From: a virus
Virus record (IMG/VR): IMGVR_UViG_3300045988_151219
Location: 74,124 to 138,123 of that record
Strand: one strand, 5' to 3'
Length of the DNA: 64,000 nucleotides
Positions 1,632 to 48,583 of the stretch are shown in pieces. How positions within the stretch are numbered: the stretch's first letter is position 1; every line of letters begins with the position of its first letter. The position numbers and the translations under genes are program-made. The notes under the pieces are model-generated. The model did not search any database and was not told where the DNA came from. It saw only the letters and a list, made by a program, of their open reading frames with translations.

Positions 1632-3794
1632 CTACCTCAAAGATTTTGTTAATATCTGAAACACACATAATAACCCTGTCTGCAACTCTAAGTCAGATTT
1701 AAAAGAATCTTCTAAAATCCACGGAGCTAACAAGAACTTTATTATCTTAAGAGTATTAGCTCCAAATAAGCTGTTAATCTTCTTAGACTGCTCCGCATAA
1801 GGCGGATAATTAACCATGGCTTTTGTCATGTCGGCTAAAACTTCCTGGAAGTCCTGCTGCACAGTTACTAAGGGAAATTTTAATATACTGTCTATTGCTT
1901 TAAAACAGGTCTCTTTATCTTTCTTTGCAATCGATTCAAGAAATAGATAAATATAAGGATGTGCTGTCCGTACAGATTGTACAAAAGCATCATGACCTAT
2001 TAAGAAGTATTTGTCTAAAAGCATGTGTGCATTTCTCATATGCCCTCTTGAACGTTTGCAAATCACATCTATTACATTATCAGGTACTTCTTTGTTTAGC
2101 TCTTTAGAAATATTCTTTAAATTCTTGAACATTTCTTCTTTTGATATACCATCAAATTTAAGCTCTATAGAACGTGACCTTATTGTCTTGAGTAATTTCT
2201 CCGGATTAGTTGTAGCAAATATAAAGAAAACTTTTTTAGGAGCTTCTTCTATAATCTTAAGTAAAGCTGCTTGCCCCACACTCGAAATCAGTTGGGCCTC
2301 GTCCAGCACTACTACTTTATAGAATGAACCTGAGGAATAGGCAAACGTATCTCTTAGTTCTCTAATATGGTCTACAGAACCCATAGCCGCTGAATCAAGT
2401 TCCATATAATACGGCGTTGTATCTAAGTCTACTGTATTATCGTGATTTATTTCTCTGGCAAAAATTCTCGCACAAGTTGTATTGTGATTATATGTACCTT
2501 GGGCGTAAAATTCATGACACTTCTCTGTTGTTATGTCATAAACATCTTCTACTGTGTCAGTGTATGATAAAATCTTAGCATATGTATACCCTATTAATTC
2601 ATCAAAACATGACGGCAAATACCCTAATTCATTCTTAAGATTAATAAGAGTCCTTTCTGTAACACATCTACCCGCTCGTAAATTATGTAAAACAGCACGT
2701 ACTCTACTCGTTTTTCTTCCTTTTACATAATGTTCTAATTCTTCCGTCATTCTTCTTGTAACTGAAATAACATTTCTGGAATTAGCTGTATTTTTATCTT
2801 CTAAAATAAACTGTCTACTTGTCCATTTAAAGTCCTGTAAAGAATGATTTTTTATATATATTTTATAATAAACATTTCCTTTATATCGTCCGGTAGTTAG
2901 TGTCTTAGGTATTATCTTTGTAGCTACCCCTAAAGACATGAAAATCTCCTGGTACCCCTTTACCAGCTTTTCAGACTTGCTCATTAATTCAAACTGATTC
3001 TTTGAAATGCACCCATCAGTATCAAATAAGCCCTGAATGAATGCTTTCCTCGTCTCTACGTCTGTATTAAAAACCCATTCCGGAACATACTTATTTCCTG
3101 CTCCGTGCATGATTTCTATACTCATCTTGTCTTTTAAAGAAGACCTTATATTATAAACGTCTTCTTTTCTCTTATCTTTAGACAGCTTCCCGCTCCAGCC
3201 TACAATTCTTTTAAATTTCTTGCAAGCTTTGAGTGAACCACAATACCCTGCTGCTGTTCTGTCTCTGCTGCACCACCCATCAGAAAGCCACACGGCTTGT
3301 GCATAAGCTAAATCAGGACAGTGTTTAGCATTCTTAAACTCTATAGGTTTCTTAGGAAATAAAATATAATCTCCTATTTTTAAATTGCCTAATGGAAATA
3401 ATCCAATTTCCCCATCTTTAAAAGCTAAGACTTTGTGTCTTAGTGTTCCCCTTACATTATTATTTACATTTAAATTTACTGTACGGACTAAAGCTTCTCT
3501 TTCAAAATATTTTGCTACTATCTTGTCTTTACCAAACCTGCCCTCTGTCTCTCCTTTACAGTCTGTAAATCCCTCGTCTATCCCTTTACAGTAATCTCCT
3601 ATTTTTACATATCCATTCTCTGTTAAAATGCGTATATCTCCTGGAACGCATTTTCCACAACCATATTCTCCATAAAGTATAAGAGACCTCGGAGCTTCTT
3701 CCGGTTTAGCTACCAGTGATTTTAATATTTTTACATTTAAATCCTGCCCTACTACTTCATCAAAAGTTGTCGGTCTGAATTGCTGCGTAATCAA
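1632..3794 (-). CDS. Clamp-loader AAA+ ATPase (DnaX/RFC-like) interrupted by an intein
   Basis: Exteins join to GEYGCGK+TTCARIF, restoring Walker A GxxGxGKT. Walker B VVVLDEAQ, sensor-1 FIFATTN, and TIRSRS box are present. Confidence 0.85.
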   Translation of the reverse strand: MITQQFRPTTFDEVVGQDLNVKILKSLVAKPEEAPRSLILYGEYGCGKCVPGDIRILTENGYVKIGDYCKGIDEGFTDCKGETEGRFGKDKIVAKYFEREALVRTVNLNVNNNVRGTLRHKVLAFKDGEIGLFPLGNLKIGDYILFPKKPIEFKNAKHCPDLAYAQAVWLSDGWCSRDRTAAGYCGSLKACKKFKRIVGWSGKLSKDKRKEDVYNIRSSLKDKMSIEIMHGAGNKYVPEWVFNTDVETRKAFIQGLFDTDGCISKNQFELMSKSEKLVKGYQEIFMSLGVATKIIPKTLTTGRYKGNVYYKIYIKNHSLQDFKWTSRQFILEDKNTANSRNVISVTRRMTEELEHYVKGRKTSRVRAVLHNLRAGRCVTERTLINLKNELGYLPSCFDELIGYTYAKILSYTDTVEDVYDITTEKCHEFYAQGTYNHNTTCARIFAREINHDNTVDLDTTPYYMELDSAAMGSVDHIRELRDTFAYSSGSFYKVVVLDEAQLISSVGQAALLKIIEEAPKKVFFIFATTNPEKLLKTIRSRSIELKFDGISKEEMFKNLKNISKELNKEVPDNVIDVICKRSRGHMRNAHMLLDKYFLIGHDAFVQSVRTAHPYIYLFLESIAKKDKETCFKAIDSILKFPLVTVQQDFQEVLADMTKAMVNYPPYAEQSKKINSLFGANTLKIIKFLLAPWILEDSFKSDLELQTGLLCVFQILTKSLR
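2481..3650 (-). mobile_element. Intein with LAGLIDADG homing-endonuclease domain (390 aa, residues 49-438 of the clamp loader)
   Basis: Starts CVPGDIRILTENGYVKIGDY (block A), has TLRH (block B) and LAGLIDADG-like AVWLSDGWC and FIQGLFDTDGCIS, and ends YNHN followed by Thr+1. Junction codons were checked on the DNA (TGC at 3648-3650, AAT at 2481-2483, ACA at 2478-2480). Confidence 0.85.
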
Positions 3795-3807
3795 AATAAG
3801 CTCCCCC

Positions 3808-4509
3808 TTAAATATTGCATCCTAATATTGACAGTTGTGTTTTGTAATATTCTTCTAAATAGTCAGCTTCATATGATTTTCCAAAATACCTATAATCTGT
3901 AAGTGTTCCTACGTCTTTTATTCCGTCAGGATGGTCAGCTATTGAAACATCAAAATATTTCTGTAGCTTATAATACTCTCTTTTGCTTCCTTTCTTTCCC
4001 TGTTCATCGTTATCTAACAGCAAGATTACTTTATTGGTAAGTGTCTTGAGTATCTCTCTTCCCATCGATGAAAGCCCTGTAGACTGCAAAGCAAATACAT
4101 ATGGATAAATCTTTCCTAAGGTATCCCTGTCTTTCAAGCCCTCTACTAATACTATAGGCGTTTGCGGTGTAAATTTCTTGTCTAAAGAAAAAATACCATA
4201 TGGAAATTCTCGATAATTACCATAGGTAATAAATTTCTTGTTGATTAAACTTCGGAATATAATATAAAAGTCTTTATCTTGAAAATGATTTACTATACCT
4301 ACTACCAGTTTTTCGTCAATAATAAAAGTCTTTAAATAAGCGGGAAGTAATGAAGCTTTTCCCGCTAACTGTATTAAAGACTGCATTGTGAATAATCTAT
4401 AGTTAGATAAGTCGTAATATAACCCCATATAAGAATACGGGTCTACTACGTCTTTCTTTTTTAGTCTAAAGCTAACTTTTAACAGTTCGCTTACTGGTAG
4501 TGTACTCAT
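3808..4509 (-). CDS. Toprim-domain protein (DnaG-type primase catalytic part)
   Basis: IVLVEGLKDRDTL (Toprim Glu) and VILLLDNDEQGKKG (DxD). Confidence 0.6.
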   Translation of the reverse strand: MSTLPVSELLKVSFRLKKKDVVDPYSYMGLYYDLSNYRLFTMQSLIQLAGKASLLPAYLKTFIIDEKLVVGIVNHFQDKDFYIIFRSLINKKFITYGNYREFPYGIFSLDKKFTPQTPIVLVEGLKDRDTLGKIYPYVFALQSTGLSSMGREILKTLTNKVILLLDNDEQGKKGSKREYYKLQKYFDVSIADHPDGIKDVGTLTDYRYFGKSYEADYLEEYYKTQLSILGCNI

Positions 4510-4510
4510 C

Positions 4511-4855
4511 CTAATCCTCTTTGTTGATTTTTTCTAATTCTTTATTTATCTGTGTGACTGTCTGCGTTAAATCACTTGACTTAGAATAATAAGAAGCTGT
4601 TATGTCTATAATAGATATTTTATTAGGCATTACTCCATATAAGCAGACAATAAATAAGAAAAGAAGTGTTGCTCTTTTTATCCTTTTCTTATTGCTTGTA
4701 TTTAAATCAATCTCAAACGGATTAGTAATAAAAACAAGAAAACATCCACCAAATAAAATACTTAATATAATTACTATAACTCTTAATGTCTCATGAACAT
4801 TGCAGTATAAATTCAAAGCATATATAACCCATGGAGATATAAACAGTTCGTCCAT
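4511..4855 (-). CDS. Small membrane protein
   Basis: Two hydrophobic helices (VIVIILSILFGGCFLVFI, ATLLFLFIVCLYGV). Confidence 0.45.
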   Translation of the reverse strand: MDELFISPWVIYALNLYCNVHETLRVIVIILSILFGGCFLVFITNPFEIDLNTSNKKRIKRATLLFLFIVCLYGVMPNKISIIDITASYYSKSSDLTQTVTQINKELEKINKED

Positions 4856-4884: not shown

Positions 4885-4894
4885 TATATTATAC
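4885..4894 (-). promoter_or_regulatory. Class B promoter-like motif (minus strand CAGTATAATATAAGAG)
   Basis: Plus-strand tatattatac sits in the gap between stop 4889 and ATG 4855; one of 10 intergenic copies. Confidence 0.45.
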
Positions 4895-7800
4895 TGTTTT
4901 CTTCGACAAATTGTACAGTAATAATCGTCCTGTACATGTAGGACACATCTTATTATAATCGTGCTTAAACAAAGAAAAAGTTAAAGAGTTTCCACACTTG
5001 CAGTTTGCATCTACTTTCATTGTCTGGTCTACCATCTGAAAAATACAGTCCTGTAAGCATTGACGGTATGACCTCTTCGTGATTGTGGACATTACTAAAT
5101 ATGGTGAAATATAAGCCGGCAGTGACATATAAACTAAAGCTCCCGCTTTGTACGGTATAGCTAATATCTTGTCTCTTAATTCCGGCATATACTTTGTTGT
5201 AAATGTCATCAGTGTATTAAGACTCTTTCCAGCTACTTTTATATTCCAGTCTGTATTTGCCATTTTGTTTTTAAAGAAGTCTACAGAATAATCGTTTATC
5301 ACTCCTAAGTATGTTATCTCGTTTTCTCTTGACTGCTTTAAAGCATCCGCATCATCATAAACAGCTGTAACTTGACACGACTCTAATTTACTGTTTACTT
5401 CTTCTAAATGTTGTAATAAATCCTGTGCTGATACTTTTTCTTTGAAAGATACATCAAAAAGCCAGCTGCCTGTATACCAACCTCTCTGGTCGTTAGCAGA
5501 TAATAATTGACAAGAGTTTCCTTCTACAGCAAAATACTTATACGCCAATCCAGGAACAGTTTTAAAAAATTGAGATGTAACGTAATACTGTAAAGCATCT
5601 CTATTATAAAAGAACCATTTAGGATTCTGCTTTACAATAAATCTAAGTATTGTAGCTTTTCTTCCTTCAGAAAAAGAATTAATGACATCATCGTAATTGC
5701 TTTCATCATATATCTTTCTGGTAGTCATATATTTTATATGCTTGGCGTCACACGTCTGGCATCCTAAACATGTAGCATCCTCATTGGCTAAAGTCTTTAG
5801 ACACAGATTAGCCGAAAAGTCCATTTTCTGTGTCCTTTCCCACCACATCTTTTTTACTCTGTCAGTGACCGCCTGCATATAATCATTGGGAAATATCCAG
5901 TCTTTAGGACGTGCATTACAAAAAAAGAACATATCTTCTATTCCATGTTCTTTTAAGACTTTTACTACTATTTCCTGGCAGTTTCTTCGAAACCTACTGT
6001 AATAAACTGCTCCTTGTTCAGACATCTTTACTAAACAATCAGTTCCTGCCGGACCAAAATCTATTAGCAACTGCTCTATCCAGGTTCCCCCAAAGATTGA
6101 ATGTATCCTTACTCTTACTTTTCTTTTCTTCATCTCTTCTATCAGATAAAGAAATTGATTGCCAGGATAAAATGACATTCTTGCAGTCTTTCTATCAAGA
6201 TATCTAAGTGCTATATTTGTATAATAAAGCAACGGAGTTATATTCATCTGTAGGGATGTTTTAGCTCCGATTTTATCCCTGATAGCGAACATCTCGTCTA
6301 CTTCTGAAATGCATTCATCTATGTCTTCTTTAGTTTCATATCCGGTTTGGATATACCCCATTTTTAAGTGCATGATTTTTAAGCGGTAGATATTTCTTGC
6401 CGCCTGCATTATAGTTTCTCTTGATAGATTTTTATTTAAGAATTGATTTCTTAGTCTGTTGGAAAATCCCTCAATAGGTGCAGATACTCTGGATAATCCT
6501 AATTTCTTTGCAATTAACAGCTGCTCCGGTGCATGTGCTATCACGTCTAACCGTTCATTTATCAAAGAAATTTTAGAAAAGTATTCCGCCCCTTTCTTTA
6601 TCATGTCCATAAACCTATAGTAGTAGTTTAGATTATAACTATAAAAAGTTACTTTATTAGCAGCAGAAGTCTTTCTTGCATACTCTAAATTCTTCTCTAC
6701 ATTATCTAAAGTACGTTCATGATAGTTTCCGGCTATAGTTGCTTCGTGACAATTGTGAGTATAAAGCATGTTGTAGCATGTCCGATGGTTAGGCAAGGTC
6801 TCTGTAGTATATGTTACTTCTTCTCTTCCTAATTTCTTCACAGACATAACATATACAGGAAAATAATCCCCGCTCGCTAAAGCTTTAAAGATTCTCGGTA
6901 AAGAACTATAAGAATATTTCTTTAATGTCTCTATAGAAATATTATTTCCTTGATATGATACAAAAGCTTTGTTATCTTTATATAAACATAAGTGAATATA
7001 TTCTCCTGTGATTTCTACAAATTTTCCTACCATACGATATAACAGTTGAATATCTGATTTAAACTTATATTCTGTTATCTTAGTTAAATCGTTTTCTACA
7101 TACTCTAAATATTTCTCTATGCTCTCTTTAGCATAATAGAATACATGGTCAGAAACTCTTTTGTTTTTAAAGTCTTCTTCGTATCTCTCTTTTAGCTCTT
7201 TTTCAGACGGAATATACTTGCCATAAGATTCTAAACCCATCTTGATATAAAAGACATCTCTTATATTGATGTCTTTTGCTAAGACTTCTTCTTCTCTTCC
7301 TTCAGATAAAATCATCCTCATCATGCGATGGTTTTCTGAACAGGTGAATTTAGAACCATCTGATAAAGTAATTTCCATTAAAGGCTGCTTTGAAGCCTGT
7401 TTTACTGTTGTATATTGCTTTTCGTCTTCTCTTAAAAATCTTGTAGTAGGCACAGCCCCCACGTCTAAAAGAGACTCTATATTCTCAAGCCCTCTTCCTG
7501 TCGGTATCTTAGTTCCTGCCGGTACTGAAAAAGAACATAATGTAGAAGCCCCTGAACAGCCTGAGGATACCTGCACATCTATAGATGAACAGTTTGACCC
7601 CGCTAAGTGAAAAGTCTTTAAAGGAAAGCCTTCCCATTCATCAAGCTCAAGTTTATTTACTTGCACTCTTTCCGGAAGTCTTTCGTCTAAAGGCTTAATT
7701 GATTTTATTGTATAGTTGTCTTCCGCATAATCCCATTTATATTTATTGGGATAAAAAATATAGTGGTTTAAAATATTCCTCGATATTAAATACTCCATGA

Positions 7801-8473
7801 ACCCATTAGTATCATGCAGATTTTTACCCTCTTTTACTTTATAGTTGTATGCACTTTCAATCAGTGTAGGTAAAATAACTTCTCCATACCCATGAATAGT
7901 CATGTCTACTAAAGATGAGCCTAAGTCTTTCCCCTCTTCATCGTAAACATGTCCATAAAGTATCGGGGCTTCCGTTGCAGAAGCTCCCCCCATTATAAAA
8001 GGCGGAATCCTTAAATCTTTTGCTCTTCCCTCTACCGTGTAAGGTATGCCTGATTTCTTGAGTATTATCGGAATATGAAACATTTCCGGAATTAAAGCCA
8101 TTGATACTAATACTAAGTCATAGTCTTTTACCGGATGGTGGGAACAGTTACCAAAAAGATAAGGAATGTGGTTTTCTTCATAAACCTTTTCATTCCCCTC
8201 TTCGATAAAGTAACAGTTGTCTACAAAGATATCTTCGCCATGCTTTTCATGACATAGCCAATTCAAGCAGCTAAAGGAGTTAGATACTGTCTTGTGTGAC
8301 CCTGGCAGTAATAACACTACAAGTATTTTTAGTTTTGATTTATCCCATTTCTGTATAGAATCTTGGTTATTGTCTACCGCATACAGATATTCAGGATAAT
8401 TCATCTTCTTCATATTATTATCAAGAAATCTCTCTATCTCTTCATGAGTGACTTCTATTAAATCATTCATCAC
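4889..8473 (-). CDS. Giant radical-SAM protein of the TIGR03960/TIGR03936 (radical SAM + radical-SAM-linked) type, interrupted by an intein
   Basis: N-terminal B12-binding-like layout (KILVVLLLPGSHK..., YDLVLVSMALIPE..., PPFIMGGASATEAP). Cys cluster GCSGASTLCSF|C HEATIAGNYHER after intein removal. Core VSAPIEGFSNRLRNQFLNKNLS and LKMGYIQTGYETKEDI resemble FAPEAGTQRLRDVINKG and YFMIGLPTETDEDI of that family as I recall it. Confidence 0.6.
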   Translation of the reverse strand: MMNDLIEVTHEEIERFLDNNMKKMNYPEYLYAVDNNQDSIQKWDKSKLKILVVLLLPGSHKTVSNSFSCLNWLCHEKHGEDIFVDNCYFIEEGNEKVYEENHIPYLFGNCSHHPVKDYDLVLVSMALIPEMFHIPIILKKSGIPYTVEGRAKDLRIPPFIMGGASATEAPILYGHVYDEEGKDLGSSLVDMTIHGYGEVILPTLIESAYNYKVKEGKNLHDTNGFMEYLISRNILNHYIFYPNKYKWDYAEDNYTIKSIKPLDERLPERVQVNKLELDEWEGFPLKTFHLAGSNCSSIDVQVSSGCSGASTLCSFSVPAGTKIPTGRGLENIESLLDVGAVPTTRFLREDEKQYTTVKQASKQPLMEITLSDGSKFTCSENHRMMRMILSEGREEEVLAKDINIRDVFYIKMGLESYGKYIPSEKELKERYEEDFKNKRVSDHVFYYAKESIEKYLEYVENDLTKITEYKFKSDIQLLYRMVGKFVEITGEYIHLCLYKDNKAFVSYQGNNISIETLKKYSYSSLPRIFKALASGDYFPVYVMSVKKLGREEVTYTTETLPNHRTCYNMLYTHNCHEATIAGNYHERTLDNVEKNLEYARKTSAANKVTFYSYNLNYYYRFMDMIKKGAEYFSKISLINERLDVIAHAPEQLLIAKKLGLSRVSAPIEGFSNRLRNQFLNKNLSRETIMQAARNIYRLKIMHLKMGYIQTGYETKEDIDECISEVDEMFAIRDKIGAKTSLQMNITPLLYYTNIALRYLDRKTARMSFYPGNQFLYLIEEMKKRKVRVRIHSIFGGTWIEQLLIDFGPAGTDCLVKMSEQGAVYYSRFRRNCQEIVVKVLKEHGIEDMFFFCNARPKDWIFPNDYMQAVTDRVKKMWWERTQKMDFSANLCLKTLANEDATCLGCQTCDAKHIKYMTTRKIYDESNYDDVINSFSEGRKATILRFIVKQNPKWFFYNRDALQYYVTSQFFKTVPGLAYKYFAVEGNSCQLLSANDQRGWYTGSWLFDVSFKEKVSAQDLLQHLEEVNSKLESCQVTAVYDDADALKQSRENEITYLGVINDYSVDFFKNKMANTDWNIKVAGKSLNTLMTFTTKYMPELRDKILAIPYKAGALVYMSLPAYISPYLVMSTITKRSYRQCLQDCIFQMVDQTMKVDANCKCGNSLTFSLFKHDYNKMCPTCTGRLLLYNLSKKTV
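6752..7528 (-). mobile_element. Intein (259 aa, Ser1 class, residues 316-574) with no recognisable endonuclease motif
   Basis: SVPAGTKIPTGRGLENIESL fits block A (xLxxGTxIxT), TCSENH fits block B, and EEVTYTTETLPNHRTCYNMLYTHN ends in HN followed by Cys+1. Junction codons were checked on the DNA (TCA 7526-7528, AAT 6752-6754, TGT 6749-6751). Confidence 0.75.
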
Positions 8474-13665: not shown

Positions 13666-14664
13666 TTATGTTTTTATCTCTCCTTTCTCCAGTTCAACAA
13701 TATGTTTCCCTATATCATATACTACGTTTACTGTTACAGCATTTCCTGCTTGTTTATATAATTGTTCAGTGCTATTACATAATAAAGCTTTATGAAACTG
13801 CTCGTCAGTAAACCCTTGTAGCCCCCAGCACTCCTTTGGAGTAAGCTTTCTTATATAACACTTAACTCCATTAGATAATAAAACTCCGCTTATCTCACCT
13901 TTATGGTTGCTTGTTCCTTTATTGCAACCAGTCGTAAGACATCTTGCATATTCAGTTAGTTTTACTTCTTTCTCTGAAAGGTCTATGAATTGACAGTATA
14001 AACCTGTTTTTGCTCCTATACCTCCACCTTGCGATGTTATAGTACAAGCCAAATCTAAATTATATACTCTATCTCCTTGAGAACCATTTATAATTTCTTT
14101 AAGAGTTCTCTCACTTTTTCTTGTGACAGGAAGTAGCGACTGTCCTTTGTGTTCTCCATTATATCCCGCAATGTACACTCGCTCACGGCTTTGCGGAACT
14201 CCGTAGGCTTTTGAGTTGTAAACACGCCATTCAAGACTGTACCCTCTCGCAGCCATTTCAGACAAGACCTGGAAGAATCCCCAGCCATCATCAATTGAAA
14301 GCAAGTTCTTAACGTTTTCAGCGATAAGCCATTTGGGTCTATTTCCGCCTGCTTCGTCAAGAAGCCGCATAATCTCATAAAATAAGCCACTTCTGGTTCC
14401 TCGTTTGATACCTGCTTGTTTCCCTGCAATGGATACATCTTGGCATGGAAACCCGAAGGTCCATATGTCGGCTTTTGGTATTTTGTCGCCTCTAACTTTT
14501 TGGACATCATTTGCAAACCATAATCCCTCCGTGTTATATAAAGCTCTATAACTTCTTTGAGCATATTTATTAAATTCACACCAGCCAATACATTTCATTC
14601 CCGCCTTCTCAAACCCTGAATGAAATCCACCTATGCCAGCGAAAAAGTCAATAAAAGTTAGCAT
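13666..14664 (-). CDS. dcm: DNA cytosine-5 methyltransferase
   Basis: FIDFFAGIGGF (I), GFPCQDVS (IV), ENVKNL (VI), QSRERVYI (VIII), GNAVTVNV (X). Confidence 0.95.
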   Translation of the reverse strand: MLTFIDFFAGIGGFHSGFEKAGMKCIGWCEFNKYAQRSYRALYNTEGLWFANDVQKVRGDKIPKADIWTFGFPCQDVSIAGKQAGIKRGTRSGLFYEIMRLLDEAGGNRPKWLIAENVKNLLSIDDGWGFFQVLSEMAARGYSLEWRVYNSKAYGVPQSRERVYIAGYNGEHKGQSLLPVTRKSERTLKEIINGSQGDRVYNLDLACTITSQGGGIGAKTGLYCQFIDLSEKEVKLTEYARCLTTGCNKGTSNHKGEISGVLLSNGVKCYIRKLTPKECWGLQGFTDEQFHKALLCNSTEQLYKQAGNAVTVNVVYDIGKHIVELEKGEIKT

Positions 14665-29126: not shown

Positions 29127-29213
29127 TGGTGCGAAAGGTGGGACTTGAACCCACACGGTATTTCTACCAGGAGATTTTAAGTCTCCAGCGTATTCCGATT
29201 CCGCCACTCTCGC
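29127..29213 (-). tRNA. trnL-UAA: tRNA-Leu(UAA), type II, CCA encoded
   Basis: Manual cloverleaf: acceptor GCGAGAG/CTTTCGC, anticodon arm GGAGA-CTTAAAA-TCTCC, long variable arm, T arm GTGGG-TTCAAGT-CCCAC, ACCA end. Confidence 0.9.
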
Positions 29214-29384
29214 ATATAGACAAGCTTTTACAGAACCAGCTATTGCTGCCTTGTATGAACAATGGGAGAAAGCAGCAATATGAAGAAAAGTGTTTAGGGA
29301 TATTTTCTTAGCTGTAAGTAAAAGTATGAGGAGCGTCTGTAAAAGCCCATCTTATATAAGCAGTTTAATGACTTACTTAGGTCA
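29214..29384 (-). ncRNA. Structured 171-nt spacer between tRNA-Ser and tRNA-Leu (candidate ncRNA)
   Basis: Perfect 11-bp long-range helix GCUUUUACAGA/UCUGUAAAAGC enclosing a perfect 9-bp helix UAUUGCUGC/GCAGCAAUA, plus hairpin ATGAC-ttacttag-GTCAT. Confidence 0.3.
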
Positions 29385-29475
29385 TGGCGGATAGAGTGAG
29401 ATTCGAACTCACGCATGCATCTCTGCACCTAACGGTTTTCAAGACCGTCCTCTTGAGCCTCTTGAGTATCTATCC
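29385..29475 (-). tRNA. trnS-UGA: tRNA-Ser(UGA), type II, CCA encoded
   Basis: Acceptor GGATAGA/TCTATCC, anticodon arm ACGGT-CTTGAAA-ACCGT, long variable arm, T arm GTGAG-TTCGAAT-CTCAC, GCCA end. Confidence 0.9.
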
Positions 29476-29478
29476 ATG

Positions 29479-29554
29479 TGGTGGAAGTATCAGGACTTGA
29501 ACCTGCATCTGACGCTTATAAGGCGTCTGCTCTAACCGGTTGAGCTATACCTCC
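29479..29554 (-). tRNA. trnI-UAU: tRNA-Ile(UAU), CCA encoded
   Basis: Acceptor GGAGGTA/TACTTCC, D arm AGCTCAACCGGTTAGAGC, anticodon arm GACGC-CTTATAA-GCGTC, T arm GCAGG-TTCAAGT-CCTGA (the last pair is not perfect), ACCA end. Confidence 0.85.
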
Positions 29555-31654: not shown

Positions 31655-31885
31655 CTACTCCAGGAGGAATCCATTCAAGCTCTTCAAATCAATTGAATCT
31701 CCTTCAGAATCCTTAAGCCGATTTATATAATTTTGATAAAAGTTTGGATTAAACCACTCTATAGGTGTTGAAATATCTTCTAACCCTTCTATTTCTCCTA
31801 AGATATCATCAGGACTGTTTTCTGATATTATCAAATCATCTATAGTCATAATATTATCTGCTTTCTTTAACAAGCTGTTCAACAA
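31655..31885 (-). CDS. Hypothetical acidic protein
   Basis: 76-aa ORF ending in a double TAG TAG; overlaps the adhesin 3' end by 32 nt. Confidence 0.4.
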   Translation of the reverse strand: MLNSLLKKADNIMTIDDLIISENSPDDILGEIEGLEDISTPIEWFNPNFYQNYINRLKDSEGDSIDLKSLNGFLLE

Positions 31886-33647
31886 TCATAGTGAGTCTTT
31901 CTACTTTATCTTTCAGCTGTTTATTTTCTTCTGTGAGTGTATTTATCTGCTCTACTAATTTCTTGTTAGAAACATAGTTAAACTGGTTACTTGATTTACC
32001 AAATTTTACTGAAAATCCGGCATTGAACATGTTGTTACCATTGCCTACAGTAGAACCTAAGCTAAACATCACATTTTCACTCGGACGGTAGAATACTCCT
32101 AAAGCTACAGCATTAGCATTTCTATAATTTCCATATCCCACAGCGAAATCCCATTTTTCTTCCGGATTAAATTCAAGCGGATGTAATGCCGCCAAGGCTG
32201 CTGAACCTGCACCTACTTTATTAACCCTATCACCTAAAAGTTTTACGTCTCTTCCTACATTAGTAATGTTATTAGTAACTTCATTGATTTTTGTGTTGAT
32301 ATTAGTAATACTATCAGAATTTTTCTTAATTGCAGCATCAAGTTTCTTATCAGCGTCAATTAAATTCTGTGCATTACTAATATACGTTGTGTGTTGATAA
32401 GCATTGTGTAATTCTGTAGTGTTTGTAGAACCAATCATATTGTGAATATTAGTATCACCAGCAATACGATTGTCTTTCTCTTTCTGTAAATCAGACGCTT
32501 TAGCTACATCTTTAATTACAACATATCCAAGCTTAGTGTCTGAATAATTATCTTTCACTTCAAGTGTAACTTTGTTGTCTTCTATATTATACTCTCCAGG
32601 TTCTACTGAATTATCCTTCAGCTTTCCTGTAAGATTGACTTTTGAACCGTCTTTCTTGACAAGAGTAATAGTTCCATCATTGTTAATAGAACCTTTTATA
32701 ACATTATTTCCATGAACTACTTCTGCCAATGAACGAAGCTGTGCTACATTGACAGCATCATCAGAACTTGTACCAGCAGCTACATTGGTAATCTGACGTT
32801 TATACTGACTGTTGCCAACACTAACAGCACCAGCTGTAGACTCCCATACGGACCATCCGGTATGCTTTGGATTAATATTCATGGTAGCAGGGTCCCACCC
32901 AAGAACTCCTTTATCAATATTTGCTAAAGACTCTTTGCCTAAAGCAATCCCGCCCTTAACATTGGTAGTTGAAAACTTTCCAATTGCAATGGCATCATCG
33001 GCGTATGTTTCTCCACCGATACCTATTACATTATCGCCTTTAACTGTCCACGCATTTATTCCAATAGAATATTTTCCATAAACATTAGTAGTAGAACTAC
33101 CTATAGCTAAAGAATCAATACCATATACGTAAGTAGAACTCCCAACAGCAACACCGTTAGAAGCAAATACCATAGCTTGTGTTCCTATAGCTACAGCATG
33201 ATAACCATGTGCTTTTGCAGTGTCACCGAAAGAGACAGCATCTTGACCGATAGCTTCAGAATTTACTCCCATTGCAACCGCTTCACCATCACCATGACTC
33301 TTTGCAGTACACCCAGAACCTACAGCTACAGAAATCCAGTTTCTACTATTATCAGCATTAGTACCATCAACTTCATTGTGATTTCCTATAGCCATAGCAT
33401 CAAAGCCTTTTACTTTATTATAAACTCCTACAGATAAACCCATAGAAGCATTTTCCATTTCCGATTCTCTACCTATCATTGTACTCCAGTTAGAGTTTTT
33501 CATTTTGAGTTTATTCCCAATGACAGTATATTCGGTACTACCTGTAACTGTGTTATTAGCTCCGTTGTCAATATCTACAGCATAAGCTGAACTTGTTAAA
33601 AGCAAGCTTACTAAAACGGCAGTAATTAAGCTCTTATTTTTCTTCAT
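31854..33647 (-). CDS. YadA-like trimeric autotransporter adhesin
   Basis: Signal peptide MKKNKSLITAVLVSLLLTSSAYA. Head repeats (AVAMGVNSEAIGQDAVSFGDTAKAHGYHAVAIGTQAMV...). Neck NVAAGTSSDDAVNVAQL. Coiled-coil stalk. Anchor GAGSAALAALHPLEF...WDFAVGYGNYRNANAVALGVFYRPS...NAGFSVKFG. Local GC is about 45% against a ~30% background. Confidence 0.85.
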   Translation of the reverse strand: MKKNKSLITAVLVSLLLTSSAYAVDIDNGANNTVTGSTEYTVIGNKLKMKNSNWSTMIGRESEMENASMGLSVGVYNKVKGFDAMAIGNHNEVDGTNADNSRNWISVAVGSGCTAKSHGDGEAVAMGVNSEAIGQDAVSFGDTAKAHGYHAVAIGTQAMVFASNGVAVGSSTYVYGIDSLAIGSSTTNVYGKYSIGINAWTVKGDNVIGIGGETYADDAIAIGKFSTTNVKGGIALGKESLANIDKGVLGWDPATMNINPKHTGWSVWESTAGAVSVGNSQYKRQITNVAAGTSSDDAVNVAQLRSLAEVVHGNNVIKGSINNDGTITLVKKDGSKVNLTGKLKDNSVEPGEYNIEDNKVTLEVKDNYSDTKLGYVVIKDVAKASDLQKEKDNRIAGDTNIHNMIGSTNTTELHNAYQHTTYISNAQNLIDADKKLDAAIKKNSDSITNINTKINEVTNNITNVGRDVKLLGDRVNKVGAGSAALAALHPLEFNPEEKWDFAVGYGNYRNANAVALGVFYRPSENVMFSLGSTVGNGNNMFNAGFSVKFGKSSNQFNYVSNKKLVEQINTLTEENKQLKDKVERLTMIVEQLVKESR

Positions 33648-40738: not shown

Positions 40739-42523
40739 TTAACATTTTTCATAAGCTTCACACCAGTTACTTCCGAAAGCCCACTCATACTTAAATTTGA
40801 AATCTTTATATAAATCTGAAAAATCAAATAAGCTGTCTAAAAGCTCCTCTGCTTGTTTGTCTGTATAAGTCTCCGGAACTTCTATCAAGTGACTGTCAAA
40901 AACTCCCAACACCCATTGAATGTCTTTAATATCTTTTGTTCTTCTAACTACCATCTTAAAGAAATCAGCACATGAAGACTGTATAGCTGTGTTAAAAGCT
41001 CTTCGCTCATCAGCAGACTTTTCAGATTCATCAAAAGAATTTATGTTTACTAAAGTACGTCTTCTGCCAATTATCGTTTCTGTATATCCGTTCTTCCTGG
41101 TTTTTGCTATGACTTCATCTCTGAATTTAGCTAATTCCGGAAATAATGAGAAATATTTATTAACTAATTTCTGCCCATCTTCGTATGATATATTTAACGC
41201 TCTTGCAGTAGCTGCTCCGGCAGAACCAAAAATAGTGCTGAAAGAAACAACTTTAGACACATTTCTTTCTTCTTTAGAGATTTCTGTTTTACCTAATAAT
41301 CTTTTGGCTATCTCGGTGTGTAAGTCTACTCCTTTATTAAACCAGTCTAAAAGAGTTTTACAGTTAGAAAGATACGCTGCTATATAAAGTTCCGCTGATT
41401 TCCAGTCCGCATATAAGAATTTATTTCCTTTGTGAGGAATTATACTTTTTCTAAATTCAGCCGGATATGCTGAAACAATAGGGTCTTTTACATATACACG
41501 ACTTGAAGCAGTTCCATACCCAACTGATTCAAATACCGGATGAAAAGCTCCATCATCAGAAACCATTGAAGTTACTTTCTTTAAAGAGTTCTTGACTGAA
41601 AGATTATGTTTCAACTCTAAGATATTCGTTATTATTTTAGAGTTTTCAGTCTCTCCTTTATTAGCTAAGTTTTCAGAAAGCATATTTAAAGATTGTGCAT
41701 TGAATGACGGTTTCCCTTTAGGCGATTTTAAAGGTATTTCAAATTTCTTCTCATCTACTAAAAAACTATTTAAATCAGAAAAAGCGTTAGGTCTGAAAGT
41801 TTCTTTCCCTATCTTTTTACAGAAATTATTTAAGTCTATATCATACTTCTTGTTGACTGTATTTTCTATTTCAGTAAACTTGTCCGCATCAAAAAGTATT
41901 CCTCTTCCACTTGATTTAATAACTTCTGATATAAAGTCAAATTCAAGCTGCAAGACTTTTTTCTGCTGTATTATATTGTCTTTGTAATATTCCATTATCC
42001 TAAACGGTAAGACAGAATCTAAAGCGGAATATTGTAAAACCAGCTTATTTTCTATATCATATCTAAATTTTCCATCTTCATCAGGTGTAAAAATGTTTTC
42101 AAACTTTCGGATAAGAGAAGCTTTTTCCGGATATAAGTTAATAAAAATGTCTTTTAAAGCGTTTAACTCTAATTGAAAAACTCTTGCCATGATAAAAGTA
42201 TCAAAGTAAATAGGAACGGCTACTCCAAATTGGTCATATATTCTTGACAAATCAAATTGAAGGTTATGCCCTACTGCTTTAATACTTGATAAAAAATCTT
42301 TCAGAATAGATTTCTCAATATCAGAAAGTTCTGTATATGTGTCTGTTTTATTTGAATATGTTTTTATCGGTATAACTAAAGAAATATCTTCCTGCAAGTT
42401 ATATAAAGAAAGTAAAGTTATCGGAGATTTAAAATCCAAACTTTCTGTCTCTATGTCTAATCCTAAATTTTTATTCTTCCAGGTAGAAGGTATCTCACTC
42501 GGTAAAGCTAATTTTATCTGCAT
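40739..42523 (-). CDS. Family-A DNA polymerase, divergent paralog (3'-5' exo + pol)
   Basis: Exo I LGLDIETESLDF, Exo II VGHNLQFDLSRI, Exo III YSALDSV. Motif A LYADWKSAELYIAAY, motif B RNVSKVVSFSTIFGS, motif C LGVFDSHLIEV (FDS in place of HDE). Confidence 0.75.
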   Translation of the reverse strand: MQIKLALPSEIPSTWKNKNLGLDIETESLDFKSPITLLSLYNLQEDISLVIPIKTYSNKTDTYTELSDIEKSILKDFLSSIKAVGHNLQFDLSRIYDQFGVAVPIYFDTFIMARVFQLELNALKDIFINLYPEKASLIRKFENIFTPDEDGKFRYDIENKLVLQYSALDSVLPFRIMEYYKDNIIQQKKVLQLEFDFISEVIKSSGRGILFDADKFTEIENTVNKKYDIDLNNFCKKIGKETFRPNAFSDLNSFLVDEKKFEIPLKSPKGKPSFNAQSLNMLSENLANKGETENSKIITNILELKHNLSVKNSLKKVTSMVSDDGAFHPVFESVGYGTASSRVYVKDPIVSAYPAEFRKSIIPHKGNKFLYADWKSAELYIAAYLSNCKTLLDWFNKGVDLHTEIAKRLLGKTEISKEERNVSKVVSFSTIFGSAGAATARALNISYEDGQKLVNKYFSLFPELAKFRDEVIAKTRKNGYTETIIGRRRTLVNINSFDESEKSADERRAFNTAIQSSCADFFKMVVRRTKDIKDIQWVLGVFDSHLIEVPETYTDKQAEELLDSLFDFSDLYKDFKFKYEWAFGSNWCEAYEKC

Positions 42524-46399: not shown

Positions 46400-46436
46400 A
46401 ATATATATAAATAAGAGTGTAGAAATTTACACTCTT
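46400..46436 (-). terminator. Possible terminator overlapping the polA stop
   Basis: AAGAGTGTA-(6 nt)-TACACTCTT followed by an A/U-rich tract; the U-tract is weak. Confidence 0.4.
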
Positions 46437-48583
46437 TAAATTTCAAATATAGACTCTTCCTGCTCTTCTTGTACTACTTCTTCTAAAGCTTCTTCTCTAA
46501 TTTGTTCAGTAGGAACAGCTTCTACTTTAGGTGAAATAGTTCCGTCTTTATAGTTGACATTAAAATCAAAACACTTCCCCCAACAAGTTCCTATACTCGG
46601 CTCTGCTTTCATCTGACATTGCCAGTTAGGTATTGTAAACTCCATACACTTTTTAGCCAATAATAAGTTATGTATAAAGTTTTCATCATTAGGTATCGAC
46701 AAATCTATTTCATCATGAATGGTATTCATGAATCTAACCCCTGTATTTAATTTTGGATTTAACAGCTTATTCCACATTCTAAGTATGGAAAGTTTAGTTA
46801 TGTCCGCCGCTGTTGCTTGTATCTTGTCATTTATAATAGTCCGCCGTCCATAAGCTCGCATCTTTGGATTAGCAGACTCCATATAAAATTTTACTCTTCT
46901 CGGTCTCCCAAAATAAGAATAAACTGTACCTACTTTTTCTGCTCTTCTTTCTACTGTACGTACCCATTGAAATAATGTAGGTAATCCTTTTTTAAAGTCA
47001 TCTACCAGTTTTTGAGCTTCTTCTAACGGTATTTCTAATTTCTCCACGTAAGTATGTGCATTACCGCCGTAAAGCTGGGAGAAAGAAGCTACTTTAGCCA
47101 TCTTTCTTTTATGCTTATCATAATTTTCTTTTCCCCAAATCTGACAAGCGGTTTCTGCGTGTACATCTCCCCCCTGTGTAAACGGTCTGACCCATGCAGG
47201 TTCTCCTGAAATAGCAGCTGGTATTCTTAGCTCTTGTGCGTTAAAGTCAATAGCTACCCATAGACAACCTTTATCCGGCAAAAAAGAAGACCTCAAATTT
47301 AAATGCTGGTCAAATCCTTCTGCCCAAACATCAGCTTTCCGCCATGTTGAAAACAGCCAGTCTCTTATAATAATCTCGTCTTTTGTAATGGTAGATAAAT
47401 CTATGTCTTTTAATTCATGCACATAATACATGCAAGGCTCCGGCTTAGACAATGCCTGTATATTCATATGAGTAAAATATGTATTCTTCTTGTCTGAACC
47501 TGACGCCAGTCTCCCTGACGGAACATTAAAATGAATATAAGAGAAACGGCACTTTCCGTTCTGTCGAACAGCTTCATCATATAAGCTGCCAAAGAATGAA
47601 GACTGCATTTTCTTGAGTTTTGAGTATTCTACAAGCTTAGTTAAAAGCTTCGTCTCTTCTGTATTGCCTAATTTCTTTGATACAGCAGTTAATGTATTTA
47701 TATCTGTCTTCATCTGTCCGGTAGCTGTATATACTCCTGTTGTAATACCTACCGAAATTAAAGCTTCCCCTAACTGCTTAGGAGATTTTAATGTAAAAGG
47801 ATATCCTACTGTAGCGTATATCTCTGATTCTAATTTTGCTAATGCAGGCTCTATTTCATCTAATCTCGCTTTGACATAGTCTACATCAATATTTACTCCG
47901 TTATCTTCAAAGATAACAAAAGGCATTAAAATATTATTGTCTATCTTTGATGAAATTCCACCCTCTTGATAGAATTTAAAAGTCTTTGCTACTAAAGCAA
48001 AAGTTCCAATAGCATCATAGCAAGCATACTTATAACCATCTTCCGGATTAACATAATAGAAAGATGAATTAGAACCTACTGTCTCTTCAAAGGTAGGTGG
48101 CATATACCCTAAGAAATGTAAAGTGCTTTTCTTGAGTGACGGCAGCTTAACATTAGTATCCGAAAGCCATGTACACTCCATAACGTCTAAGTATTTAATT
48201 GCCTGGATATCATATCCTAACTTATAAAGCCACCGGATATCAAACTTATAGTTATAAAAGAAAACTTTCTTGCTTTCTAATAATGCTTTATACAATAAAT
48301 CAAGGGAATCTTTCCCTAAATTATTTCCCACAGCATGTTTGACTGGAATATAATATCCTTCGTCCGATGAAAAAGCTACCGAAAACCCTACTATAAATCC
48401 ATTGTCAGGGTCTAAATCGGATGTTTCAAAGTCAAGAGACATCAATTTTGCTTTATTCTCTTCAAACAGCTTTTTCAGTTCTTCTATTGATTTAATAAGA
48501 TGTGTCTTTAATGAGTTTATTCTCTCCTGATTTTCACGCACTGCTGGAATATAATGTTCGTATGCTGCTATATTCTTTGCCAA
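46436..48583 (-). CDS. polA: Family-A DNA polymerase, canonical motifs (3'-5' exo + pol)
   Basis: Exo I LMSLDFETSDLDP, Exo II FFYNYKFDIRWL, Exo III YACYDAI. Motif A VAIDFNAQELRIPA, motif B RKMAKVASFSQLYGG, motif C NTIHDEIDL. Confidence 0.9.
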   Translation of the reverse strand: MAKNIAAYEHYIPAVRENQERINSLKTHLIKSIEELKKLFEENKAKLMSLDFETSDLDPDNGFIVGFSVAFSSDEGYYIPVKHAVGNNLGKDSLDLLYKALLESKKVFFYNYKFDIRWLYKLGYDIQAIKYLDVMECTWLSDTNVKLPSLKKSTLHFLGYMPPTFEETVGSNSSFYYVNPEDGYKYACYDAIGTFALVAKTFKFYQEGGISSKIDNNILMPFVIFEDNGVNIDVDYVKARLDEIEPALAKLESEIYATVGYPFTLKSPKQLGEALISVGITTGVYTATGQMKTDINTLTAVSKKLGNTEETKLLTKLVEYSKLKKMQSSFFGSLYDEAVRQNGKCRFSYIHFNVPSGRLASGSDKKNTYFTHMNIQALSKPEPCMYYVHELKDIDLSTITKDEIIIRDWLFSTWRKADVWAEGFDQHLNLRSSFLPDKGCLWVAIDFNAQELRIPAAISGEPAWVRPFTQGGDVHAETACQIWGKENYDKHKRKMAKVASFSQLYGGNAHTYVEKLEIPLEEAQKLVDDFKKGLPTLFQWVRTVERRAEKVGTVYSYFGRPRRVKFYMESANPKMRAYGRRTIINDKIQATAADITKLSILRMWNKLLNPKLNTGVRFMNTIHDEIDLSIPNDENFIHNLLLAKKCMEFTIPNWQCQMKAEPSIGTCWGKCFDFNVNYKDGTISPKVEAVPTEQIREEALEEVVQEEQEESIFEI

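Follow-up and report, generated by a model that had tools for sequence, protein, structure and literature searches.

An intein candidate with a decayed endonuclease in the cluster-binding loop of a phage radical-SAM protein

The question raised by this locus is what a long in-frame insert is doing in the cluster loop of a radical S-adenosylmethionine (radical-SAM) protein encoded by a large phage. The DNA analyzed here, called the window below, is a stretch of 64,000 nucleotides (positions 74,124 to 138,123 of the IMG/VR virus record IMGVR_UViG_3300045988_151219). The gene in question is an open reading frame (ORF) of 1194 amino acids at 4889..8473 on the minus strand, where all large ORFs of the window are found. 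Its frame is open throughout, and the peptide quoted in the original prediction, which had proposed an intein here from the letters of the DNA, is encoded on this strand. The insert consists of residues 316-574 (6752..7528, minus strand), exactly 259 amino acids or 777 bases in frame, and its context reads ...SSGCSGASTLCSF/SVPAGTKIPTGRGLENIESL...NMLYTHN/CHEATIAG, where slashes mark the junctions. With a probability of about 0.85, we conclude that these 777 bases are a genuine intein in the iron-sulfur (Fe-S) loop of a phage radical-SAM enzyme, composed of a Hint domain around a decayed LAGLIDADG remnant.

Position of the insert and its host protein

First, the insert is missing, with exact edges, from homologs of the host protein. 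One of them (P0002; 931 amino acids, 44% identity) can be aligned with the window protein from end to end, and the sole gap is precisely the 259 residues, leaving the junction ...SSGCSGQSSCCSF/CMEANVAG. Another (L004; 923 amino acids, 26% identity) also lacks the insert and reads ...SHGCSSGGACTF/CHEGSVYG, and the empty-site junctions are therefore CSF/C in P0002 and CTF/C in L004. A member of the P0002 cluster, P0021, is likewise without residues 316-574; it lies at the syntenic locus of a related phage, after RecA, HD, SbcC-like, Mre11-like and clamp genes. Judged from these alignments, the insert observation is far beyond chance. The original prediction had placed the insert between the second and third conserved cluster cysteines and had named an alignment with intein-free homologs as a check. 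That alignment returned the exact 259-residue gap in P0002 and L004, and the proposed position and coordinates are confirmed because the intein-free homologs close precisely there.

Second, the insert ends at a cysteine which the host family keeps whether or not an intein is present. All five family members have C306, C313, F315 and C575 without exception, and the invariance of Cys575 across the family bears out the proposal that the +1 nucleophile is also the third cluster cysteine. From its invariance and position, we infer that C306 is the first cluster ligand. The description of the radical-SAM Fe-S motif has to be corrected in its spacing, which is CX6CX2C in the window protein, P0002 and two intein-bearing family members described below (P0004 and P0005) and CX5CX2C in L004; the canonical CX3CX2C is found in none of them. 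Variant cysteine spacings are known in the radical-SAM superfamily.

Third, the host protein can be recognized better when the insert is taken out. The Pfam family Radical_SAM (PF04055; curated cut-off 29.5 bits) gave 28.0 bits with the unspliced protein and 41.0 bits, as one continuous match, after in-silico removal of the 259 residues, and Radical_SAM_N2 gave 31 bits with the unspliced protein. In NCBIfam, the unspliced protein matched nothing, and the spliced protein matched TIGR03960 with 80 bits (E 1e-22) over residues 76-628, spanning the junction. The cut-off of that family is 462 bits; with a score so far below it, the extein is better described as a distant relative of TIGR03960 than as a member. 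Both the Radical_SAM_N2 and Radical_SAM domains of the TIGR03960 B12-binding radical-SAM proteins are present in the window extein, and about 550 residues are matched once it is spliced. Unlike that family, the window extein is encoded in a phage replication module, has the CX6CX2C spacing and carries an extra C-terminal region of about 300 amino acids with a Cys-rich tail. PHROGs has no family for the host protein, and we found no paper on the function of TIGR03960. The true start of the gene is probably the ATG at 8470; relatives of the host protein begin with MNDL.

If the insert is an intein, it would excise itself after translation and join ...C306-x6-C313-S-F to C575-H-E-A, and the contiguous three-cysteine motif that holds a [4Fe-4S] cluster would be recreated by splicing. 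Cys575 would act first as the +1 splice nucleophile and afterwards as a cluster ligand, and the spliced protein alone would be the active enzyme. It is a reasonable inference from the position of the insert that the unspliced precursor is unable to bind the cluster, and that splicing is obligatory before cluster binding. The coordinates of the gene parts and of the splicing blocks are collected in Table 1.

With the whole protein, tblastn found nothing among 50,697 phage records, and megablast of window positions 1-25000 likewise found nothing. A word-index search with the intein alone gave no match, a profile word-index search recovered P0001 and P0002 again and nothing further, and profile searches of IMG/VR viral contigs and GTDB genome contigs were also empty.

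Table 1 Features of the intein-bearing radical-SAM gene in the window
Feature	Coordinates	Strand	Basis or remarks
N-extein, residues 1-315	7529..8473	minus	TIGR03960-like B12-type radical-SAM protein; Radical_SAM_N2 match at residues 80-210
Fe-S loop, first part, C306-SGASTL-C313-SF315	7529..7558	minus	predicted cysteines 1 and 2 of CX6CX2C; Cys313 is at extein position -3
Intein (probable), 259 amino acids, residues 316-574	6752..7528	minus	exact gap in homologs; profile and fold matches
Block A, S1-VPAGTKIPTGRGLENIESL	7469..7528	minus	register of C-L-A-E-G-T-R-I in classical inteins; residue 1 is Ser, codon TCA
Block B, LSDGSKFTC-S64-EN-H67-RMM	7319..7366	minus	B:7 Ser, B:10 His; compare ATKDH of Npu DnaE and CSPEH/CSEEH of other inteins
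LAGLIDADG endonuclease remnant, about intein residues 105-215	6884..7216	minus	aligns to the endonuclease domains of P0004 and P0005; predicted helices H109-166
Blocks F and G, V238-TY-T241-TETLPN-H248-RT-C251-YNMLY-T257-H258-N259	6752..6817	minus	F:4 Thr, F:13 His, penultimate His, terminal Asn
Cys575	6749..6751	minus	putative +1 splice nucleophile and third cysteine of the cluster motif; kept in all family members, with or without intein
C-extein, residues 575-1194	4889..6751	minus	rest of the radical-SAM barrel, C-terminal region and Cys-rich tail; Radical_SAM match at residues 575-722

Intein signatures, orthologous inteins and functional state

By every computational criterion available, the insert belongs to the intein superfamily. 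With hhalign, it was matched over blocks A and B to aligned canonical mini-inteins and Hint repeats with 90% probability (E 1.4e-6), and PI-SceI was found as a weak sequence match in the PDB. A profile built from the window intein and the two orthologous inteins described below matched PI-PfuI and PI-PkoII (E 1e-5) and Npu DnaE (E 0.008). An AlphaFold2 model of the insert, with three sequences as input, had a mean pLDDT (predicted local distance difference test) of 63.6, and when it was searched against the PDB with Foldseek, all 50 among the matches listed were inteins or Hint domains. The top matches were PhoVMA (first, E 1e-4), the branched intermediate of Sce VMA and the Mxe GyrA intein. 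The classical class 1 LAGLIDADG inteins (PI-SceI/Sce VMA, PhoVMA/TliVMA, PI-PfuI and PI-PkoII) and their mini-intein derivatives are thus the best structural and profile matches. The Hint blocks A, B, F and G, the terminal His-Asn and Cys+1 are shared with them. The proposal of an intein is borne out by the precise indel, by the Hint sequence and fold, by His-Asn followed by Cys+1, and by LAGLIDADG-bearing orthologous inteins at the same site.

The splicing blocks can be assigned as listed in Table 1. The block B residues S64-E-N-H67 align with T-K-D-H of Npu DnaE, and in P0004 and P0005, B:7 is occupied by Gly and Thr, respectively. TCSENH had been read as a TxxH block B; T62-C-S-E-N-H67 is instead Tx4H, and the profile alignments give Ser64 as B:7 and His67 as B:10. 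Block F was assigned by manual alignment with Npu DnaE, Mtu RecA and Ssp DnaB, in which His248 and the spacing to the C-terminus served as anchors, and its residue numbers are putative to that extent. Cys251 was considered as the equivalent of F:4 and rejected, lying 8 residues from the C-terminus where F:4 lies about 18-22 from it. All three orthologous inteins share His67, Cys251, the terminal Asn and Cys+1.

When the intein alone was searched with HMMER against 1.84 billion representative proteins, just four matches were obtained, namely a fragment of the same intein, a PT-HINT repeat protein, P0004 and P0005. The last two are members of the host radical-SAM family, with homologous inteins of 389 and 418 amino acids, respectively, at the identical site. 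In both, LAGLIDADG_3 scores over the Pfam cut-off (E 1e-11 to 1e-12), and an endonuclease lies between the Hint halves as in the classical inteins. A model of the P0005 intein, of low confidence, has endonuclease-bearing inteins as its best matches (TliVMA, E 3e-10; PI-PfuI, PI-PkoII and PI-SceI). In P0005, both LAGLIDADG motifs (LLGFIQGDG and LRGIFQADG) have the acidic residue, and in P0004 the catalytic acids are replaced by Arg and Lys (LAGSFRARG and LKGLFQSKG).

Compared with these, the window copy lacks both LAGLIDADG motifs, which are alignment gaps against P0004 and P0005. No endonuclease match was found for the window intein in Pfam and PHROGs, and the earlier remark on the absence of visible LAGLIDADG, HNH or GIY-YIG motifs was right. 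Nevertheless, the linker is a recognizable LAGLIDADG-domain remnant: in the three-way alignment, pieces of the endonuclease, for example RVSDHVFYYAKESIEKYL and DIQLLYRMVGKF, can still be recognized. From this alignment, the absence of the motifs is better read as decay than as a new linker. The family would therefore offer four states of the homing cycle, namely an apparently intact endonuclease (P0005), a mutated one (P0004), a deleted one (the window) and an empty site (P0002 and L004).

The two orthologs have further peculiarities. P0004 (gene 28-2919 of contig L006) diverges after ...LLKHGSIM and stops 12 codons on, inside the radical-SAM domain and 68 nucleotides before the contig end; a frameshift, pseudogenisation or another interruption, for example an intron, might account for this early stop. 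In addition to the intein at the shared site, P0004 (residues 715-857) and P0005 (residues 762-1231) each have a second, canonical Cys1 intein some 40 residues further downstream. These second inteins occupy sites two residues apart (SFN/SNYYY and ISFF/SYNVNYY), and the corresponding region is empty in the window protein (residues 610-619, FYSYNLNYYY, about 6617..6646, minus strand).

Several observations weigh against a genuine intein in the window gene. The Pfam search proposed earlier did match Intein_splicing (24 bits, E 3e-5), yet below the curated cut-off of 35.8 bits, and the NCBIfam model of the intein N-terminal region (TIGR01445) gave 15.8 bits (E 0.02), under its cut-off of 24.5 bits. 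The structural model is of moderate quality overall, and its pLDDT is below 50 at residues 245-259, which are the C-terminal blocks. F:4 is Thr and not the usual Asp, B:7 is Ser and not Thr, and residue 1 is not conserved among the orthologous inteins, which makes the first step of class 1 splicing insecure. Finally, the spliced product is not on record, and the databases searched hold five distinct family sequences in all. The profile scores under the cut-offs, the F:4 and B:7 residues, the decayed homing endonuclease and the lack of a recorded product would also suit an insert that no longer splices, be it a dead intein whose host gene has become a pseudogene or a Hint-derived domain retained in the mature protein.

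We consider a non-splicing insert very unlikely, as the pattern of selection and conservation points the other way. Compared by the NG86 method with a 98%-identical copy of the gene (L002), the window gene has ratios of nonsynonymous to synonymous substitution (dN/dS) of 0.05 in the N-extein (dS 0.28), 0.046 in the C-extein (dS 0.17) and 0.14 in the intein (dS 0.08). The ORF is intact and the intein is kept in all 14 variants at 98-100% identity, and among these variants no variation is seen at Ser1, blocks A and B including His67, His248, Cys251, the His-Asn or Cys+1. Variable amino acid columns are about twice as dense in the intein (24 of 259) as in the exteins (41 of 882; p = 0.009). The exteins are under strong purifying selection, with the splicing blocks also constrained. 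Since both flanking exteins are strongly constrained, a host protein permanently interrupted in its cluster loop is not expected. The insert parts cysteines that form CxxC in intein-free homologs, so its retention should disable the enzyme. Homologs keeping the 259 residues as an integral domain without Hint similarity were looked for and none was found; the homologs either lack the insert exactly or carry a homologous intein.

The same comparison gave a further observation on the history of the gene. A recent transfer of the intein between the window and L002 lineages was considered from its low dS (0.08 against 0.17-0.28) and dropped, as divergence is patchy over the whole gene and stretches of the C-extein are equally silent. 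Between the window gene and L002 10001-13582, there are zero differences over codons 413-510, 614-703 and 1119-1194, and elsewhere there are up to 17 per 50 codons. This patchy divergence suggests mosaic recombination within the gene.

Residue 1, splicing class and redox control

The chemistry of the first splicing step depends on residue 1, which differs among the three orthologous inteins. It is Ser (TCA) in the window, Asn (AAC) in P0004 and Asp (GAT) in P0005, and the codon differences are multi-nucleotide, hence not sequencing slips. Nor can the intein boundary be moved, because homologs without the intein also have CSF/CTF directly before the third Cys, and because the register of block A, x-x-P-x-G/x-T/S-K/R-I/V-P in the three inteins with P3, P9, G13 and L14 invariant, puts Ser, Asn or Asp first. 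For these two reasons, we rejected an intein that begins with the Cys of CSF and would then be of class 1 with Cys1. Neither Asn nor Asp is capable of the N-O/N-S acyl shift that class 1 inteins use.

In the literature consulted, splicing without a nucleophile at residue 1 is described for just two groups, the class 2 KlbA inteins and the class 3 inteins (PMC2807308, PMC4031507, PMC7664689, PMC7891396). The KlbA inteins, reported as a single archaeal orthologous group, carry Ala1, Ser G:6, Cys+1 and Asp F:4, with Ser G:6 and Cys+1 as the signature (PMC4031507). The class 3 inteins have the triplet Trp B:12, Cys F:4 and Thr G:5 (PMC2807308, PMC7891396). In the clade described here, F:4 is Thr in the window and Ser in both orthologs, and B:12 is Met in the window and Thr in both orthologs. 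The window residues concerned are Met69, Thr241 and Thr257, and the orthologs have Thr/Ser/Glu at the class 3 triplet positions.

Neither signature fits the clade, in which Ala1 is also absent. Class 3 membership was rejected because Cys F:4 and Trp B:12 are absent, with block F aligned by hand. Phage association is shared with class 3 (MP-Be DnaB, Msm/Mch DnaB-1 and AceL NrdHF), as is a variable non-nucleophilic residue 1 in the orthologs. AceL NrdHF, a top structural match, has Ser B:7, Met B:12 and Thr G:5 as in the window intein. However, the window F:4 is Thr241 (in the orthologs, Ser), Trp B:12 is missing, and the +1 residue is Cys rather than Ser or Thr. Class 2 membership of the window intein was also rejected, as it has Ser1, His G:6 and Thr F:4 and shares Cys+1 alone with the class 2 signature. 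In common with the KlbA type are Cys+1 as the C-extein nucleophile and His B:10, and P0005 likewise pairs a non-nucleophilic residue 1 (Asp1) with Ser G:6 and Cys+1. In contrast to KlbA, the clade has Thr or Ser at F:4 and not Asp, and KlbA is absent among the PDB sequence matches, with no specific relationship detectable. From the classical class 1 inteins, the clade differs in its varying residue 1 and in a host protein and insertion site that are new as far as our searches show, and the window copy also differs in having lost both LAGLIDADG motifs and in Ser B:7 and Thr F:4 in place of Thr and Asp.

The original prediction had taken Ser1 as the catalytic nucleophile. Ser is indeed present and constant in the 14 variants, but its role is doubtful, as orthologs at the identical site begin with Asn and Asp. 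The window intein may well use Ser1 canonically; from the comparison with its orthologs, Ser1 may also be dispensable. We tentatively consider, as a less probable alternative, that the whole clade is independent of residue 1, and that Cys+1, or an internal residue (the F:4 Thr/Ser or Cys251), attacks the bond between Phe-1 and residue 1, leaving residue 1 free to drift. The simplest such route would possibly be a direct attack of Cys+1 on the Phe-1 carbonyl. Besides the Asn and Asp starts at the identical site, the state of P0005 speaks for such independence: it is an intact ORF of 1813 amino acids, its exteins match the intein-free P0002 at 54% identity over 923 aligned residues to either side of the intein, and its LAGLIDADG Asp residues are kept, which is not dead-gene-like. 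P0005 also ends in Ser-Asn/Cys, as in the KlbA class 2 signature (PMC4031507), and His B:10, the F:4 hydroxyl, Cys251 and Cys+1 are common to all three inteins. However, the case comes from two single-contig metagenomic sequences. P0004, which stops early and has lost the catalytic acids, may be a pseudogene, and class 2 inteins keep the Asp F:4 that is absent in the clade. Ser1 is moreover strict in the 14 variants, though at 98-100% identity this carries little information. If the clade does splice without a residue-1 nucleophile, which we hold to be possible but doubtful, it would be a second, independent and phage-borne origin of class 2-type splicing, or a new route with an internal nucleophile.

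The position of the intein in a cluster loop also raises the possibility of regulation. The original prediction had raised a redox-dependent gating of the enzyme by splicing. Splicing could be a conditional redox or Fe-S sensing switch, in which oxidation of Cys+1 or cluster insertion blocks the reaction and active enzyme is produced only under reducing conditions. Such a switch would be compatible with the positions of Cys313 (extein -3) and Cys575 (+1), a disulfide with Cys-3 or Cys-10 being one example, and there are precedents. In Pyrococcus abyssi MoaA, a native Cys-3/Cys1 disulfide, which holds until conditions are reducing, controls splicing in an oxygen-labile radical-SAM host (PMC3922620, PMC10663303), and in the Pab PolII intein, a disulfide between Cys1 and Cys+1 prevents splicing (PMC3922620). 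The Pab MoaA intein has a radical-SAM host and Cys at extein -3 in common with the window intein, and from the CX2C geometry it would also lie directly before the third cluster cysteine. The two differ in residue 1 (Cys1 there, Ser1 in the window) and in host, an archaeal MoaA in one case and a phage TIGR03960-like protein in the other.

Nevertheless, we regard a switch of this kind as improbable. Because residue 1 is Ser in the window (and Asn or Asp in the orthologs), the Cys-3/Cys1 trap of the MoaA type cannot form in the window intein, although a Cys-3/Cys+1 disulfide is conceivable from the residues present. Inteins generally occupy the most conserved catalytic motifs through conservation of the homing site, and the position is therefore silent on regulation. 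As syntenic phages have orthologs without the intein, the host enzyme can do without a switch, and a decayed endonuclease suits the life cycle of a selfish element. Together, the intein-free syntenic orthologs, the decayed endonuclease and the preference of inteins for catalytic motifs lead us to favour the selfish-element explanation over a regulatory role.

The phage lineage and the meaning of the intein

From the domain matches of the window proteins, the surroundings of the gene resemble the replication module of a large phage. On the minus strand, from high to low coordinates, the order is a C5-methylase, an SbcC-like ATPase, an Mre11-like phosphoesterase, a beta-clamp-like protein, the radical-SAM gene, a Toprim protein and a clamp loader. 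Near-identical copies of the radical-SAM gene sit on contigs of about 145 kb.

Other genes of this lineage also carry inteins. Two genes downstream, the clamp-loader gene (DNA_pol3_delta2/AAA; 1632..3794, minus strand) has a canonical P-loop intein with Cys1, Thr+1 and LAGLIDADG_3, whose junctions read GEYGCGK/CVPGD...GTYNHN/TTCARI; with the radical-SAM insert, this makes at least two inteins in the window, and they are of different types. On L002, whose radical-SAM gene is 98% identical, a C5 DNA methylase of 682 amino acids (2746-4794) contains an intein (Intein_splicing, Hint_2 and a faint LAGLIDADG). The window methylase (13666..14664, minus strand; 332 amino acids) is intein-free, and the presence of this intein is thus polymorphic within one phage lineage. 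The lineage is an intein-rich one.

Other features of the window and of a relative were also observed. There are two separate family-A DNA polymerase genes (40739..42523 and 46436..48583, both minus strand), each with a 3'-5' exonuclease domain, and in the second the DNA_pol_A profile match is split into two stretches. A cluster of three tRNA genes, Leu(UAA), Ser(UGA) and Ile(UAU), lies at 29127..29554 (minus strand). A genomically encoded Ile-UAU anticodon is unusual in bacteria, and the cluster fits an AT-rich phage (33% GC) that brings its own decoders. At 31854..33647 (minus strand), a protein of 597 amino acids has YadA head, stalk and membrane-anchor domains, the architecture of a trimeric autotransporter adhesin, in otherwise phage-like surroundings; either a tail fibre or a gene of host origin would be conceivable. 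In a syntenic, intein-free relative (L007, 3220-3591), a protein with the Acb2/Tad1 hairpin domain, of the anti-CBASS/anti-Thoeris sponge family, is encoded near the RecA and HD genes.

In conclusion, the insert in the radical-SAM gene is probably an intein of a known, ordinary kind in a host family and at an insertion site for which we found no published description, and our literature search found no paper describing an intein in a phage radical-SAM gene. The element would have homed into a highly conserved DNA site, become fixed in the phage lineage of about 145 kb and then lost its endonuclease, and the window copy is best understood, from the sequence comparisons, as a mobile, selfish element in a late phase of the homing cycle. 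As far as our searches show, this is the first intein found in a TIGR03960-like phage radical-SAM protein, inside the cluster-binding loop. It is raised above the routine by the predicted dual role of Cys575, by the complete homing-cycle series and by the occurrence of Ser, Asn and Asp at residue 1. The annotation of the gene can also be corrected, as the unspliced ORF falls under the Radical_SAM threshold and the spliced one over it.

The four homing-cycle states can be a useful natural series for the study of intein evolution in phages. If the Asn1 and Asp1 orthologs splice, the mechanistic range of inteins would be wider than the single KlbA lineage and the class 3 lineage with its Trp-Cys-Thr triplet, and a compact intein, with Ser1 or free of the nucleophile, and with a Cys+1 junction would become available for protein engineering. 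In a clade that truly needs no residue-1 nucleophile, the attacking thiol would also be the future [4Fe-4S] ligand. With the +1 nucleophile tied to Fe-S ligation, the protein may offer a testable system for the competition of cluster assembly with protein splicing.

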